From a virus, in the IMG/VR virus record IMGVR_UViG_3300032268_000973, positions 119,358 to 183,357 of that record: 64,000 nucleotides of DNA, one strand, 5' to 3'. Numbering within the stretch: position 1 is the first letter of the stretch; each line of letters starts with the position of its first letter. The notes beneath the pieces were generated by a model. That model was given only the letters and a program-made list of their open reading frames with translations. It made no database searches and was not told the origin of the DNA. Shown here piece by piece: positions 42,465-49,774 of this stretch. The translations under genes were made by a program, and so were the position numbers.

Positions 42465-43310
42465 TTGGAAACAAATAAAATAATAAATGGGGACTGTGTC
42501 GAAGAGATGAGCAAGTTTCCAGAATCTGTCATTGATTTAATTGTGACATCACCTCCATACAATGTAGGGATTGATTATGATGTTCATAATGACAATCAAT
42601 CGATGGAGAACTATTGGCAATTTACTGAAAATTGGTTGTCAGAATCTTTTCGTGTATTGAAAGATGATGGTAGAATTGCAATCAACATTCCTTATGAGAT
42701 AAATGTTCAGGATAGGGGTGGAAGAGTATTGTTTATGGCTGAATTTTGGTCAGTTATGAAGAAAGTTGGATTTCAGTTTTATGGACTTGTAGATCTTGAT
42801 GAAAACTCACCACATAGAAGTAAAACTACTGCTTGGGGATCTTGGATGTCACCATCTTCACCTTACATATATAATCCTAAAGAATGTGTCATTCTTGCCT
42901 ATAAAAAAGACAGAATAAAGAAAAAGAAGGGAGAGGGTCAATGGAGTTTCGAGGTCATTGATTTAGAACAAGAGGATGGGTCAGTAAAGAAAAAGACTAT
43001 CTATAAGGACGAAGACAAGAAAGAGTTCATGAGTTTGGTTTATGGTCAATGGGAATATTTTGCGGACACAAAACAACAAACCAAAGCGACATTTTCAATG
43101 GATATTCCGAGTAAAGCAATCAAAATCCTAACATATAAAAATGATATAGTCTTAGATCCATTCACAGGATCAGGAACCTCTATAGTTAGTGCTGAAATTT
43201 TAAACAGACGTTGGATTGGTATTGAATTGAGCCCCAACTATTGTGAAGTTGCCAAAAAAAGAGTTCAACATTTTGTTGATGTAAAAAAACAAGGTGTTTT
43301 AGATTTTTAA
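42465..43310 (+). CDS. Beta-class amino-DNA methyltransferase (likely N4C)
   Basis: TSPPY near the N-terminus; DPFTGSGT near the C-terminus. Confidence 0.88.
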   Translation: METNKIINGDCVEEMSKFPESVIDLIVTSPPYNVGIDYDVHNDNQSMENYWQFTENWLSESFRVLKDDGRIAINIPYEINVQDRGGRVLFMAEFWSVMKKVGFQFYGLVDLDENSPHRSKTTAWGSWMSPSSPYIYNPKECVILAYKKDRIKKKKGEGQWSFEVIDLEQEDGSVKKKTIYKDEDKKEFMSLVYGQWEYFADTKQQTKATFSMDIPSKAIKILTYKNDIVLDPFTGSGTSIVSAEILNRRWIGIELSPNYCEVAKKRVQHFVDVKKQGVLDF

Positions 43311-43320
43311 TATTTCAATC

Positions 43321-43346
43321 AAAAGGTCCTAATGGACCTTTTTTTT
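43321..43346 (+). terminator. Intrinsic terminator
   Basis: aaaaggtcc-taat-ggacctttt followed by T's. Confidence 0.7.
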
Positions 43347-43379
43347 GTTTTTATTGATATTTATTTAAAAAATGTAAAG

Positions 43380-44459
43380 ATGGCTCAATTTATAATAACC
43401 GAAAGTCAGTTAGAGGTTCTCAAATCAAACTTAACCTCAGAAGTTGGAAAATCCAAAAAACAATTGGACGAGGCTTGGTATAACACAGTGATGGATATAG
43501 TGGGACTTGCGGACCCTACAGGAGTTGTGGATATTGTGAACGGTATATCGTATTTCACTCAAGGAGATACCTTATTTGGTATTTTGAGTATTGTTGCGGC
43601 TATCCCATATGCTGGTGATGTAGTTGCAAAACCTGTAATGGGAGCAATGAAACTCGGATCGGCCAGTACTAAAACACTTCAATCAGCTTTAAAAACTGCG
43701 ACTAAGTTTCCAAGAGGAACAAAGGAATATGATTTAGCAATTCAGTCTTTGGAAAATTTGGCAAAATCACCAGGTGTTGTCGGTAAATTTTTACAATCAG
43801 CTGGTGGTCCAAATGGATGGGCGGGTAAAATCAACCGTGCACTTGATGGAATGCCATTAGGACCGTTCAAAGGGATGAAAAACACTATTATGGATTATTT
43901 CACTTTGTTGGGAAGAACGGGACAAAAAAGTAAAGTTCTTCAAAGCCAAGTAAAAATGTTATTACGAAACAAAAGTGCTGCGAATCTCCAAAGAAACATT
44001 CCAATTATATTAGATACTCTCAAGACAACTAAAATATTCGATACTGCGGCTTTATCCAAACCTGGTTTTATGAGTCAAGTTTTCTTCGGAGGTATACCAA
44101 GAATATTTAGATCCCCTGAAGGTAGAAGATTAAGAATTCTTATGCAATCAACTAAGTGGTGGTTAGGATTCTTGGATTACATTGGATTAGGTAATTTTGT
44201 TGGGGTCGAAGAAGTCGCAAAAAGACTTGGAGACGAAGAATTCCAAAGAAAGCTAGGAGAATATCAAAACACCTCACAAGCAAGACAATATTATGATGAG
44301 GAGTTTTCACAACAAAATATGGGAGGTGAACCAAGTCAACAATCACAACAATCATCATCACAAACATCATCATCACAATCCTCACAAGGATTAGATCCGT
44401 TTGCTAAATTGCTTCAGAACTTGTTCTTGGGCCAAATAAACCCAATACCAGGGTTATAA
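43380..44459 (+). CDS. Protein with (I/L)xE leader and pre-toxin TG-like helical domain
   Basis: MAQFIITESQLE leader; DIVGLADPTGVVDIVNGISYFTQGD..GILSIVAAIPYAGD is PT-TG-like; TATTTAT at 43358. Confidence 0.6.
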   Translation: MAQFIITESQLEVLKSNLTSEVGKSKKQLDEAWYNTVMDIVGLADPTGVVDIVNGISYFTQGDTLFGILSIVAAIPYAGDVVAKPVMGAMKLGSASTKTLQSALKTATKFPRGTKEYDLAIQSLENLAKSPGVVGKFLQSAGGPNGWAGKINRALDGMPLGPFKGMKNTIMDYFTLLGRTGQKSKVLQSQVKMLLRNKSAANLQRNIPIILDTLKTTKIFDTAALSKPGFMSQVFFGGIPRIFRSPEGRRLRILMQSTKWWLGFLDYIGLGNFVGVEEVAKRLGDEEFQRKLGEYQNTSQARQYYDEEFSQQNMGGEPSQQSQQSSSQTSSSQSSQGLDPFAKLLQNLFLGQINPIPGL

Positions 44460-44463
44460 TTTA

Positions 44464-44841
44464 TTGAAAATGAAAGAAGAACTTATACAAAAACTTGTTC
44501 AAGTACAATTACAATGGAAATTCCTTCATTGGCAAACATTTGGAGACGCTAAACATAGAACTTATGGATCTATCTATGATGGATTGGGAGATTTGATTGA
44601 CGAATTCACCGAGGTAATGATGGGAAAATATGGTAGACCTGAGTTTGATCCTGAGTTTGCTTTAATGTTCCAAGATATTAAAGCATTAAGTATTCAAGAA
44701 TTTATGGATGGGATTACTGAATTTTTAGTTGGATTCTCCGATCAACTTGATTCAAGATACGATACAGATTTACTTAATATCCGAGATGAAATGTTGGCTT
44801 TGATTAACAAGTCCAAGTATCTTCTTACATTGAAATATTAA
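44464..44841 (+). CDS. Ferritin/Dps-like four-helix protein (DUF5856-like)
   Basis: KFLHWQT...KHRTYG..YD.L.DLIDEF.E...NIRDEML. Confidence 0.7.
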   Translation: MKMKEELIQKLVQVQLQWKFLHWQTFGDAKHRTYGSIYDGLGDLIDEFTEVMMGKYGRPEFDPEFALMFQDIKALSIQEFMDGITEFLVGFSDQLDSRYDTDLLNIRDEMLALINKSKYLLTLKY

Positions 44842-44842
44842 A

Positions 44843-46246
44843 TTGATGAAACTACTTAAGGAAAGTGGACTTAGGGATATCAATGATTTAAAGAAAAGGT
44901 ATCCAAAAGCTGAAATATATTTTCACCAAGATTTGGATGGCGTAACCACTGCGGTTGCCATGAAGAAATATCTCGAGGATAATGGAATTGATGTAGTTGA
45001 CGCTCACGTCATTCAATACGGTGATAAGGAATTCGCCGTTAAGAAAAATGACGCAACAGGAGACACAATGCCAGTCCTTGTTGATTTTGCTCACGGAAAA
45101 CCAATGTTTGTGATCCATACTGATCATCACGATAGACAGGCTGGTGCTGAGGATACAAAATCCAAGTCATTTAGACAATCAAGATCGAATGTTGAAACTA
45201 TTTCTCAGATTGTCTCACCAAAAGAATTATTTCCATCCTCTGACATACTATTGATTAGCACAGTTGACTCAGCGGATTTTGCCAGACAAAACATTTCACC
45301 TGATGAAGTTGTAAACTATCTATTTAGATTTGACAAAGAAAAAAGTTTACAAAAGAATAAAATGTTGCTCGGCTTGGTCATCAACAAACTTTTATTGGCA
45401 TTTAAGAACAAGCCAGGATTTTTAGAAGGTTTGGTGATGGATTCACAGCCATCGTTGTTGTCAATTCTTAACAATATAAAGGCTTGGATGACAAAAACAA
45501 CGTCAGCAACACCAGAACAACTACAGAAGAACGCTGAAGAATATGTTCAGCAAATGAAAGGATTTCCAACTGTATCTGATAATATCATTTTCCAATATGG
45601 GGGAGGAAGTATGTTTAAGCCAGGATCTTATGACAGATACACTCCATACAGAAATAATCCTGAGGCTGATTTTATGATTATGGCTTGGCCTTTAGGATTG
45701 GTTCAAGCCTCTTGTAATCCATTCAAAAAAGAAAGAGAATTGAAAGGAGTAAATTTGGGAGAAATTGCCCAAGAAGTATTAGCCAAATGGGAACCTCAAT
45801 TGAAAGAAAGATCAATCCCCTTGTCAACAATCAAGTGGGTAAGTGAAACGAGCGTAGGACCAATGAGTGTCGGATTTACCTTCAAAGATTTTGATGCGTT
45901 ATATGGTGGGAAATTTATGTTTATGGATGGAGGAGAAGAGATTTTAGGAAAAATCAAATCTATGATGGACAAGCCTTTCAAGGAGCTTTCAGAAGAAGAA
46001 ATGAAACTCTTAGACAAAATTGGGGTGAACGCTTGGGATCTTATTCAATCAAATTCGGGTGGACACAAATGTATTACTAATATATCGGGGTTAAATTATT
46101 TAGGAAAGAGCACAAGACCTCCTAAAGGTGGTCAACGATTCGGGGAGTCTGAGGATTCTCCAACTGTGAAATTCACCAAAATGATTGCAAATCAATTCCA
46201 AAAAGTATTAAAAGAAAAAATATCACAGTCTAAAGTAGATACTTGA
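44843..46246 (+). CDS. DHH-family phosphoesterase
   Basis: YFHQDLDG, VDFAHG, TDHHD and VDSAD motifs. Confidence 0.75.
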   Translation: MMKLLKESGLRDINDLKKRYPKAEIYFHQDLDGVTTAVAMKKYLEDNGIDVVDAHVIQYGDKEFAVKKNDATGDTMPVLVDFAHGKPMFVIHTDHHDRQAGAEDTKSKSFRQSRSNVETISQIVSPKELFPSSDILLISTVDSADFARQNISPDEVVNYLFRFDKEKSLQKNKMLLGLVINKLLLAFKNKPGFLEGLVMDSQPSLLSILNNIKAWMTKTTSATPEQLQKNAEEYVQQMKGFPTVSDNIIFQYGGGSMFKPGSYDRYTPYRNNPEADFMIMAWPLGLVQASCNPFKKERELKGVNLGEIAQEVLAKWEPQLKERSIPLSTIKWVSETSVGPMSVGFTFKDFDALYGGKFMFMDGGEEILGKIKSMMDKPFKELSEEEMKLLDKIGVNAWDLIQSNSGGHKCITNISGLNYLGKSTRPPKGGQRFGESEDSPTVKFTKMIANQFQKVLKEKISQSKVDT

Positions 46247-46577
46247 TAGTGTCACCAGATTGAATTCCGAGTTTTTCACAAGTTCCACCATCCAATTCTA
46301 ACACGACATTTCCATTACCACAATAACTCGGACAATCTTCATCCTGACAAGGAGGACAGTTGTGGTGGATATTGATTATCACATTATTTTTTATTATAAT
46401 AATGTCTAAAGGTATGATACAATTTTTCATCCAAAAGCATTGTTTCTTTCCTCCCATTAAAAAAAGTAAGCCTTGGTTGGGGTGAGAGAATTTTTTACCC
46501 ATCATACCGATTTTTTGTGAAGACGGATCGGTGAGGGTAACAACTTCGAAAATGTGATTATTTATTGATATATCCAT
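46230..46577 (-). CDS. DUF192-family protein
   Basis: GMMGK...GLLF...FWMKNCIIPLDIII...VLELDGG; ATG at 46577 lies 4 nt below TATTTAT. Confidence 0.85.
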   Translation of the reverse strand: MDISINNHIFEVVTLTDPSSQKIGMMGKKFSHPNQGLLFLMGGKKQCFWMKNCIIPLDIIIIKNNVIINIHHNCPPCQDEDCPSYCGNGNVVLELDGGTCEKLGIQSGDTIKYLL

Positions 46578-46602
46578 AAACATAAATACAAAATAACTTC
46601 AA

Positions 46603-47016
46603 ATGTATTCAGGAGTCATAATAAAGTATAACGATAAATGTTTACTATGTAAACGTAGTGAGAAATATACCCACCCGAATGAATGGTTTATTCCAGCGGG
46701 GCAAATAGAAGCTGGGGAAACTCCGAGAGAAACTGCAATAAGAGAGTTATATGAGGAAACCAATCTTCAATTCACCGAAGAAGATCTGAATTTTGTTGGA
46801 ACTATCCCAACTAAGGACGATGAAGGTGGGTTATCCAATGATTTTATTTATCTGTTTGTTTCTGAGGTAAACCATCCGTTGTTTCCTGATTTAGAAAATG
46901 CGATGGATGGAAAAGAACACACCAAGTGTGGATATTTTGATTTCGAAGGTATAAAAAAACTTGGATTGGATTCTAATCTATTAAAAGTTTTGAAAAAATA
47001 TTTCGACACTAATTGA
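46603..47016 (+). CDS. NUDIX hydrolase
   Basis: Nudix box GQIEAGETPRETAIRELYEETNL. Confidence 0.9.
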   Translation: MYSGVIIKYNDKCLLCKRSEKYTHPNEWFIPAGQIEAGETPRETAIRELYEETNLQFTEEDLNFVGTIPTKDDEGGLSNDFIYLFVSEVNHPLFPDLENAMDGKEHTKCGYFDFEGIKKLGLDSNLLKVLKKYFDTN

Positions 47017-47092: not shown

Positions 47093-47124
47093 TTTGATAT
47101 AATAAAATATTCTGACTATGTTTG
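47093..47124 (+). promoter_or_regulatory. Bacteroidota-type promoter upstream of the tRNA
   Basis: TTTG(47093)-N20-TATGTTTG(47117). Confidence 0.7.
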
Positions 47125-47210
47125 TGAAACATTTGTCCCACAAATGACAGTTCGAGAGAAAAAGAGTTTGTGGGACTTTTTTGTCCGAAGTTATTCAACT
47201 TAAAATATAT

Positions 47211-47282
47211 CGCAGGATAGAGCAGTGGAAGCTCGTCAGGCTCATAACCTGAAGGTCGAAAGTTCGAATCTTTCTCCTGCTA
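47211..47282 (+). tRNA. Initiator-type tRNA-Met (CAT)
   Basis: Cloverleaf: C1 mismatched, GCAGGA/TCCTGC acceptor, GAGC/GCTC D-stem (purine 11), TCAGG-CTCATAA-CCTGA anticodon arm, GAAAG-TTCGAAT-CTTTC T-arm; CCA not encoded. Confidence 0.93.
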
Positions 47283-47335
47283 CAACGAACTGAATAAATT
47301 AAATTCAGTTGTTAAAAAAAAAGTTTTACAAAAAA

Positions 47336-47367
47336 TTTGATTGTTAAAAGTAACTTTCTTAGATTTG
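47336..47367 (+). promoter_or_regulatory. Bacteroidota-type promoter upstream of the large ncRNA
   Basis: TTTG(47336)-N20-TAGATTTG(47360). Confidence 0.7.
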
Positions 47368-47460
47368 TGAAACATTCGAAGGAAGAGGTAGTAAGTCCCT
47401 TTTAGGGTTGTAAATCCTCTTCCTTTTTTGAGTGAAAATTTGTTCTTTGAAAATATTTTT

Positions 47461-48252
47461 GGGCGGTCTATAGTCCAATAAAATAAACTGTGAAAGCAGG
47501 ATAAAGTGACTTGGTTAGGTTGAACTGAGTTGCGGTTTCCTTAGGGGAACTCGAGTAGACAGGCGAGATATCGTTGGACCTTAAGTACCGAGGGTGACAC
47601 TGTAGGGAAAGTGGTTTGATGACTGAGCGATGTGGGTCGTTTGGTTGAGGTGGGAACACCAATAAGAATAACTCGTAGGATATTTGTGAGAAATACGGTC
47701 ATCCAACCGTATAATTACGTTATCCAATATAAAAGTTTACTTAAAACCGAAAGGCATGAATTCGTACAGGTGGTGCTGTTGTTTTCCTTATTGGGTGTTT
47801 ACCAAGACCTCAATCTGAAGTTGACTTGAAATATGGAGGTGGGGACATCTCAGAGAGTAGTTTTGTATTCCGTTGTTCAAAAGATAACGGAGCAGGTGAC
47901 GGACCGCTACTTTCCAATTCCACAAACCAATAACCAATCACATTATAACAATTTGATAAAGGGAAAGTGTCCGTCAGTCATAGGAAACAGGTGACTACAT
48001 AGTCGTGAGATGTTCACGGCCGTAGAGGATCCCAAGTCCGAAACGAGTTCTGAGAAATATCTCTATTCCCGCAAGGAAGAGTTGGTGAGGCATCATCGAA
48101 GAGAATTGAGTATCAGGAGAGTATTCTATGACTTCAAGGAGTGGTTAACCTAAACAAACCGTCACTGAGGATTACTATCCAAAAGATAGTGGAAACGAGG
48201 GGAAATCATAATCCCTCTAAAGATCCTTAATGAAAGGTGTATTCTCAACCTT
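47461..48252 (+). ncRNA. Giant structured ncRNA, GOLLD-like (~790 nt)
   Basis: No credible ORF; richer in G/C than its flanks; many hairpins with GNRA loops; long-range helix 47463-69/47901-07; A/C-rich linker; downstream of a tRNA; own promoter and terminator. Confidence 0.65.
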
Positions 48253-48265
48253 ATTTTTATTTTCA

Positions 48266-48299
48266 CCCCTACTAAAAAAAAAGTAGGGGATTTTTTTTT
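48266..48299 (+). terminator. Intrinsic terminator closing the ncRNA unit
   Basis: cccctact-A8-agtagggg followed by T9. Confidence 0.75.
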
Positions 48300-48344: not shown

Positions 48345-48626
48345 ATGACAACATCATCCCACAACATCAAAATCCAACACGAAAAATTCGGAGTTCTTTT
48401 GAACGAGACATTTGTTAACGGAACTCAGTTCAAACTTTTTTTAAAGATGATCCAAGGTTGTATTGAACTGAAAAACGATTTGACGTTTTTCAACGGGACT
48501 GATTTTTTCACTCACATCCCTTTCAAACACTTGGTTGATTCTATTATAACCACACACGTGGATAACTATACATTAGCGGAACATTTAATAAATAAATCTA
48601 AAATAGAAGCGGAGGTAACAAGATGA
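48345..48626 (+). CDS. Hypothetical protein
   Basis: 93 aa; TATATTTG promoter box at 48318. Confidence 0.65.
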   Translation: MTTSSHNIKIQHEKFGVLLNETFVNGTQFKLFLKMIQGCIELKNDLTFFNGTDFFTHIPFKHLVDSIITTHVDNYTLAEHLINKSKIEAEVTR

Positions 48627-48943: not shown

Positions 48944-48968
48944 AAAGGAGGTTTCGACCTCCTTTTTT
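48944..48968 (+). terminator. Intrinsic terminator
   Basis: aaggagg-tttcga-cctcctt followed by a T-run. Confidence 0.7.
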
Positions 48969-49774
48969 TATTGAAATAAACGATGTAAATCGAAATATAC
49001 GCTTCCAAGTTTAACTATGTGGAAGCTACCGCCGAATACCATTTTTGGCTCGTCAGAGTAGTTGAGACAATAAACCTCATCGGCAATTACATCCAAGGGA
49101 GCGTGGTCAGAAGTTATAGACAACGTAACAAAGTCGTCTTGAAATTCGTATAATTCTTCATTTGACATGATTGGATTTTTTGTTTCTTGATTAATTTCAC
49201 AAATATCATTCAAATTTTTATTCCAAGACATTATAAAATATAACTCATAGTCATATTCGTTTTCAGATTGTATTTCTCCATTACCATCACATTTTTCACA
49301 TAGGACTTCTCCTGGGGAGAACCCCGAATTACTACAATTAGGACAATCCGTTTCACCTTCACCCTCGCATTGAGGACAAGTTATTACTTCATCTTCCTCA
49401 TCATCATCTTCAATTTCACCTTCACCATCGCAAGTTGTGCATGTTACCCTTCCTCCATAACAAACGTCGCAATCAACTACTCCTGAGCCTTCACAATCAG
49501 AACAAGTGTAAATATGAATTTCATTCTGAGAAATTAAAAGTTGTGAAAATCCAACATTGAACAACATTTTTTCACCTAAAATGAAATCATTTGTGTTCTT
49601 CAAGGAATAGATATAAAAAACTAATTTTATAAAGTCTTGAGGGCCGATTTTATTGAAGTAATCGGACTGATCCTTGGCCATTTCCCTTAGTGAATTAAAA
49701 ACTTCCGAAACAGTATTAAATTTTCGGATTCGTTTTTGTAAAATATTTGATATTTTTTTTAATTTTTCTTCCAT
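48968..49774 (-). CDS. Protein with six DnaJ-type CxxCxGxG zinc-finger repeats (no J-domain)
   Basis: CSDCEGSG, CDVCYGG, CTTCDGEG, CPQCEGEG, CPNCSNSG and CEKCDGNG. Confidence 0.75.
   Translation of the reverse strand: MEEKLKKISNILQKRIRKFNTVSEVFNSLREMAKDQSDYFNKIGPQDFIKLVFYIYSLKNTNDFILGEKMLFNVGFSQLLISQNEIHIYTCSDCEGSGVVDCDVCYGGRVTCTTCDGEGEIEDDDEEDEVITCPQCEGEGETDCPNCSNSGFSPGEVLCEKCDGNGEIQSENEYDYELYFIMSWNKNLNDICEINQETKNPIMSNEELYEFQDDFVTLSITSDHAPLDVIADEVYCLNYSDEPKMVFGGSFHIVKLGSVYFDLHRLFQ

Follow-up and report, generated by a model that had tools for sequence, protein, structure and literature searches.

The 64-kb window analysed here, which forms the end of a 183,357-bp IMG/VR viral contig, very probably carries the full-length gene of an env-38-type GOLLD RNA belonging to a large Bacteroidota-infecting phage, and its transcript probably begins with a leader that borrows the antitermination signal of host rRNA operons. 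The RNA at 47461-48251 on the plus strand is almost certainly a genuine structured non-coding RNA of the GOLLD family. GOLLD RNA was reportedly introduced by Weinberg et al. 2009. Traits of the family include a length of about 800 nt, a conserved 3' region joined through a variable linker to a 5' region that is less conserved, self-assembly into hollow, multimeric RNA-only cages, and expression that rises in lytic growth. In itself the copy is of little added value, being an ordinary one that Rfam detects at once, and publications already cover the family, its occurrence in phages and near tRNAs, and its cage. Of some value are the subtype to which it belongs, the phage lineage that carries this subtype, and the leader in front of it.

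When the whole 64-kb window was scanned against Rfam, two matches only came out above threshold, one to GOLLD (RF02032) and one to tRNA. The GOLLD match scores 318.9 bits (E = 1.6e-90) against a gathering score of 150 bits and spans all 416 positions of the model, and it is the one GOLLD copy in the whole 183,357-bp record. In a MAFFT alignment with relatives, homology sets in abruptly at 47459-47461, stops at 48251 and gives way to unalignable flanks on both sides; these limits define an RNA of 791 nt. The initial annotation had placed an RNA of about 790 nt at 47461-48252, in a stretch described as ORF-free and enriched in G and C, and it was right on each count, given that the longest ORF between these limits has at most 65 aa and that G+C is 0.40-0.43, compared with 0.31-0.37 in the flanks. 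Folded as a single sequence, the RNA has a minimum free energy 2.7 standard deviations below that of shuffled versions (z = -2.7), and 0 of 20 shuffles equal it.

A search of IMG/VR for relatives, with a 19-nt query drawn from the RNA's 3' end, yielded 54 loci; the 5' half is common to about 30 of them, at 67-99% identity. The RNAalifold consensus fold of 17 distinct sequences (alignment A1) has 209 predicted pairs, 115 of which show compensatory changes. An RNA this large and ornate could also be a self-splicing intron or an RNase P RNA, and the short ORFs of up to 65 aa could point to a protein-coding stretch. We regard these readings as having a negligible chance of being correct, given that intron and RNase P families all stay below the Rfam threshold anywhere in the window, and that the substitutions among relatives are compensatory in stems and not codon-like. 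The coordinates of all features are given in Table 1.

Table 1 Features of the GOLLD locus (window coordinates; relatives are the 17 sequences over which the bridge motifs were scored)
Feature	Position	Strand	Basis and remarks
Bacteroidota-type promoter of tRNA-Met, TTTG-N-TATGTTTG	47093..47124	+	Pattern match; followed by TGAAACA and a hairpin
tRNA-Met (CAU), initiator-type	47211..47283	+	ARAGORN; Rfam 64 bits (47211-47282)
Promoter of the GOLLD unit, TTTG-N20-TAGATTTG	47336..47367	+	Match to the Bacteroidota pattern
Leader hairpin in boxB-like position, then T6	47373..47434	+	MFE -26.2 kcal/mol, z = -3.3
boxA-like element GTTCTTTGAAAATATT	47442..47457	+	Predicted unpaired in the fold
GOLLD 5' domain, env-38 type	47461..47852	+	Homology, covariation, bridge motifs B1-B3
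Bridge motif B1, GAAA loop	47492-95	+	Invariant in the relatives
Bridge motif B2, GAGGGUGACAC	47590-600	+	Near invariant in the relatives
Bridge motif B3, GGAA loop	47652-55	+	Invariant in the relatives
GOLLD conserved 3' region	47853..48251	+	Rfam RF02032, model 1-416
P13/P14 hairpin with A-rich loop L14 (UCAAAAG, 47877-83)	47853..47914	+	Rfam alignment; stems covary, loop invariant
Bridge motif B6, L14 UCAAAAG	47877-83	+	Invariant in the relatives; L14 makes B6 in env-38
Pseudoknot, 5' strand	47897..47904	+	Pairs with 47969-47976, enclosing the linker
Variable A/C-rich linker J13/15, about 46 nt	47915..47960	+	Unalignable and variable in length (A1)
Bridge motif B7, J13/15 GGGA with L20 UCCC	47961-64 with 48030-33	+	Two pairs covary
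Pseudoknot strand	47990..47995	+	With 48161-48166: 100% paired, G-C to C-G swap in 8/17 sequences
Bridge motif B8 (self-kissing), P21a/L21a hairpin	48066..48078	+	Loop GC at 48071-72
Bridge motif B9 (self-kissing), P21b/L21b hairpin	48083..48100	+	Loop GGCA at 48089-92, invariant in 17 sequences
Intrinsic terminator	48266..48299	+	8-bp stem (48266-48289) with 5 G-C pairs, then T9

The initial annotation had left two options open, membership of GOLLD or a new class of giant RNA related to it. A new class that merely resembles GOLLD would find some room in the Rfam model, which describes the 3' half only, so that the 5' 390 nt are not covered by any Rfam model. However, the match is full length at more than twice the gathering score, the 5' half shares homology with the corresponding domain of env-38, itself an undoubted GOLLD, and the bridge motifs of the family are retained. 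Of the two options the GOLLD assignment stands and the new class is excluded.

The reference for the 5' half is env-38 itself, an 833-nt GOLLD located downstream of a tRNA-Met on an anonymous marine scaffold (Kretsch et al. 2025, PMC12286853). By cryo-EM it is a D7 14-mer, in which the 5' domain (1-420) forms the cap, the 3' domain forms the ring, and the linker (497-538) is disordered and lies inside the cage (PMC12286853). The supplement of that paper supplied the 5' 146 nt of env-38, which align with 47460-47602 of the window at 70% identity, with a score of 104 compared with 27 +/- 5 for shuffles, and the alignment begins at the same nucleotide as the 5' end of our RNA. An exact 44-nt word of env-38 is absent from IMG/VR.

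The inter-subunit contacts of env-38 were taken from the table in PMC12286853 and mapped by local sequence, given that the residue numbers in the OCR text drift by 2-13 nt, and the behaviour of each motif was scored over the 17 relatives. Beyond the conservation listed in Table 1, B7 contains two pairs that are always paired and change in a compensatory way in two loci (L044 and L042); this contact is intermolecular in env-38. In the same two loci the GC of L21a becomes CG, as PMC12286853 describes for the family, and the B9 contact corresponds to G675:C676 of env-38 (PMC12286853). By eye, the loops near 47700 and 47842 gave no convincing counterpart of the env-38 kissing loop B4. The conserved or covarying motifs of B1-B3 and B6-B9 indicate an ordinary env-38-type GOLLD for which a similar cage is probable. 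The oligomer number varies among GOLLDs, from a 10-mer in S. agalactiae to a 14-mer in env-38 (PMC12990946); by homology with env-38, we lean towards a closed 14-mer for the present RNA.

Taken as a whole, the RNA resembles env-38 in its size of about 0.8 kb, its upstream tRNA-Met, its 5' domain, the P13/P14 element with an A-rich L14, the variable linker, the 3' domain and the L20-J13/15, L21a and L21b contact motifs. It differs in sequence (approximately 70% identity), in a linker of other sequence and about 46 nt, and in its large Bacteroidota phage. The GOLLD of S. agalactiae and other Lactobacillales prophages has the Rfam family, the 3' domain and the association with phages and tRNAs in common with it; however, the S. 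agalactiae RNA is without P9, P11a-c and P21b and mainly forms 10-mers (PMC12990946), whereas in the present copy the L21b motif and a 5' domain of the env-38 type are both retained. ROOL RNA (RF03087) is likewise large, phage-associated, located near tRNAs and cage-forming, but it is unrelated in sequence and fold and has no Rfam match in the window.

All nine hairpins listed in the initial annotation are present in the covariation-supported consensus fold, and its A/C-rich linker is confirmed by a segment that becomes unalignable beyond about 47915 and varies in length among relatives; within the subtype both domains are conserved. The long-range pairings that it proposed met with mixed results. 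A helix closing the 5' domain (47463-69:47901-07) is paired in 85% of cases but has zero compensatory changes, with three pairs that vary only by breaking, and it overlaps two covarying helices, namely the P13 stem of Rfam (47853-61:47906-14) and the helix at alignment columns 8-13:113-118; it was rejected. A pairing of 47896-902 with 48159-65 was also rejected on covariation, given that it has no compensatory changes and one pair is broken in 9/17 sequences; the true partner of 48161-66 is 47990-95. The pairing of 47897-904 with 47969-76 is upheld: it is 93% paired, with compensatory changes in 4 of 8 pairs. Through this pseudoknot the linker is tied, at its 3' end, to the internal loop in the P13/P14 hairpin, and env-38 has GATAGAC/GTCTATC at the equivalent positions.

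The contig has a CheckV completeness of 61%, from which we estimate a genome of about 300 kb, probably that of a jumbo phage. A jumbo phage of Bacteroidota had been proposed initially, and a large phage of this phylum is supported by the viral contig and its completeness, by Bacteroidota-type promoters and by the boxA of the phylum's rrn operons. The closest GenBank copies of the RNA, which belong to the same type, are in LR745206 and LR756502, from uncultured phages of 634,780 and 642,428 bp, with Rfam GOLLD scores of 287 and 275 bits. Our literature search found no publication that links GOLLD with huge or Bacteroidota phages.

The gene order around the RNA is syntenic in relatives on both sides. 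Upstream, the conserved block 42465-47016 comprises a DNA methyltransferase, a 375-aa unknown protein, proteins of DUF5856 and of 467 aa, a minus-strand DUF192 protein and a NUDIX hydrolase just ahead of the tRNA. Among the phages the 467-aa protein is 73-100% identical, and its only domain match, to DHH, is weak. Downstream there are small unknown ORFs, and a 268-aa protein (48968-49774, minus strand) whose matches to DnaJ-type CXXCXGXG zinc-finger repeats stay below threshold. None of the neighbouring genes indicates a function for GOLLD.

The other RNA gene at the locus had been annotated as an initiator tRNA, and its sequence features make this likely: a C1.U72 mismatch, A11:U24, G2:C71, C3:G70 and A73, together with an anticodon stem containing G30G31:C39C40 and an A:U pair at 29:41, that is, two of the three initiator G:C pairs. 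In relatives, 1:72 is C.A, U.U or A-U, hence mismatched or weak. The tRNA-Met lies upstream on the same strand in 15/19 related loci, here at 178 nt from GOLLD, and it is the sole tRNA in the 183-kb record. A candidate pairing between UCCAC of J13/15 and GUGGA of the tRNA D-loop was dropped, given that relatives show no covariation and that the D-loop Gs are universal.

Several side observations concern tRNAs at other GOLLD loci. In two loci of another subtype the tRNA match falls within the GOLLD match (2253-2324 in 1927-2390 of L037; 4826-4887 in 4754-5180 of L020), which agrees with published linker-embedded tRNAs, and L017 and L020 carry permuted tmRNAs and long tRNA arrays besides GOLLD. 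In huge phages, ARAGORN reports tRNA-like genes beside GOLLD with odd 2-nt or 4-nt anticodon calls (L056 2402-2489, L057 3838-3911, L042 1515-1601), which may be intron-containing or unusual tRNAs.

Both RNA genes have promoters of the Bacteroidota type (consensus TTTG-N17-22-TAnnTTTG), of which the window contains 12 sites compared with 4.6 +/- 2.2 expected. The promoter and the terminator that the initial annotation assigned to the GOLLD unit are both borne out: the promoter fits the consensus and has an equivalent in the same relative place in most relatives, and the stem and T-run of the terminator were detected by a scan and also recur in the same place in most relatives. Although the upstream flanks of the relatives are unalignable, they have a common architecture, which runs from a Bacteroidota-type promoter through TGAAACA, a long hairpin and GTTCTTTGAA(A/T)AT to the 5' end of GOLLD 18-92 nt further on. 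The hairpin is found in the same place in relatives, without the T-run; in this phage, the T6 after the hairpin makes termination possible before boxA is made.

The tRNA-Met is preceded by a twin of the GOLLD leader (47093-47210, plus strand), in which the promoter and TGAAACA are followed by a hairpin and its T-run (hairpin at about 47134-47185), and a boxA-like but degenerate GTTATTCAAC comes last; in L002 and L007, ACGTTCTTAAAAAT precedes the tRNA. An extended promoter form, TAnnTTTGT[GA]AAAC, has 3 sites only in the 183-kb record (47117, 47360 and 48318, plus strand), all within 1.2 kb, ahead of tRNA-Met, of GOLLD and of a 93-aa ORF at 48345. Possibly it marks a special class of promoter or the timing of the locus.

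The word GTTCTTTGAA resembled boxA, for which reason the 16S leaders of Bacteroidota genomes were compared. boxA reads UGCUCUUUAACA in E. coli and AUGAUCUUUGAAA in B. subtilis, and the B. subtilis element binds NusB (PMC13753749); NusB-S10 binding with suppression of termination is described for the E. coli and B. subtilis boxA only (PMC13753749). In 51/101 Bacteroidota 16S leaders we found TTCTTT[GA]A, nearly always as GTTCTTTGAA, at 75-260 nt ahead of 16S, and four of these leaders (L062, L100, L132, L158) read CGTTCTTTGAAAATATTGAA, which equals the window over 16 nt. The boxA core is present in 19/20 GOLLD loci, on the sense strand and within 150 nt of the 5' end, where approximately 0.05 are expected per leader; L057 is the sole locus of the 20 without the motif. 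Outside the core, the GOLLD copies score -2 to +8 bits with the rrn profile, compared with -9.5 +/- 6.6 for copies of the core elsewhere in these phages. The distance from the -7 box to boxA is 75 nt, and the host rrn range is 25-160 nt. In the window alone the boxA 10-mer has 2 hits vs 1.15 expected and is not rarer than chance, hence the case rests on the comparison with relatives. Among other GOLLD subtypes, boxA is present in L016 and doubtful in L020 and L034, and it was not found in L017, L037 and L023.

The same leader can be read in another way: the promoter at 47336-67, together with the hairpin and its T6 (47373-47434), would constitute an attenuator or the unit of a separate small RNA, about 60 nt long. 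GOLLD would then be produced by read-through or from another start, and GTTCTTTGAA would be a non-Nus signal related to processing or to a promoter. The T-run after the hairpin in this phage, the twin unit ahead of tRNA-Met and a -7-like box, TATTTTTG, that ends at 47461 all fit such a reading. However, relatives keep the hairpin and GTTCTTTGAA but not the T-run, and the -7-like box (47454-61) is missing in relatives and is without a -33 partner. In three loci (L044, L042, L056) there is no promoter between tRNA-Met and GOLLD, and the order tRNA, hairpin, boxA, GOLLD is kept within one transcript. In addition, the word equals the boxA of rrn operons in the host phylum, flanks included. We therefore consider a separate small RNA or attenuator unlikely.

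Given that Bacteroidota 16S leaders contain a boxA identical to this element, which 19 of 20 GOLLD loci keep, antitermination of the host rRNA type is the explanation that we favour for the GOLLD leader, and boxA probably acts as its antitermination signal. Like an rrn leader, the unit has a host-type promoter, a hairpin, an unpaired boxA and a long untranslated structured RNA, in that order, and an identical boxA word. The cargo, however, is a phage RNA and not rRNA. The promoters also differ after the -7 box: in the loci from which the 16S leaders were taken (L058-L177), the host rrn promoters have TAnnTTTG followed by CAnCCGC, rich in G+C, and the phage units instead have TGAAACA, rich in A+T. 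If CAnCCGC is the discriminator for stringent control in the host, the phage units may escape such control, which is speculation. No phage NusG gene was found in the 183-kb record, and our literature search found no publication that links GOLLD with boxA or antitermination.

With boxA as an antitermination signal, the events at the locus would probably be as follows. Host RNA polymerase would start at the GOLLD-unit promoter and transcribe the leader hairpin and then the unpaired boxA. This element would load NusB-S10 as in rRNA operons, and the polymerase would become Rho-resistant across 0.8 kb of untranslated RNA. Transcription would end at the intrinsic terminator and the leader would be trimmed off. 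Going by the homology with env-38, the RNA would then self-assemble into a 14-mer, a closed shell that holds the linkers in its interior.

For the role of GOLLD, our best guess, and a tentative one, is a helper of the lytic cycle that is tied to translation or tRNA, given that the initiator-type tRNA-Met is its constant neighbour and the sole tRNA in 183 kb. A bolder version, which we consider improbable, is that GOLLD and the initiator tRNA-Met form one module of rRNA-style 'stable RNAs', in which the cage stores, shields or sequesters the initiator tRNA or a partner. As part of this equally improbable whole, the promoters without the G+C-rich rrn discriminator of the host might let the module escape stringent control. 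If the module were real, translation initiation would be biased toward the phage late in infection.

The finding places the env-38 subtype, for which the structure has been solved, in a lineage of large Bacteroidota phages that includes the 634-kb and 642-kb GenBank records, and thereby provides a host group for functional tests of GOLLD. Furthermore, the conserved leader of hairpin and boxA suggests how a phage makes 0.8 kb of untranslated RNA without termination by Rho.
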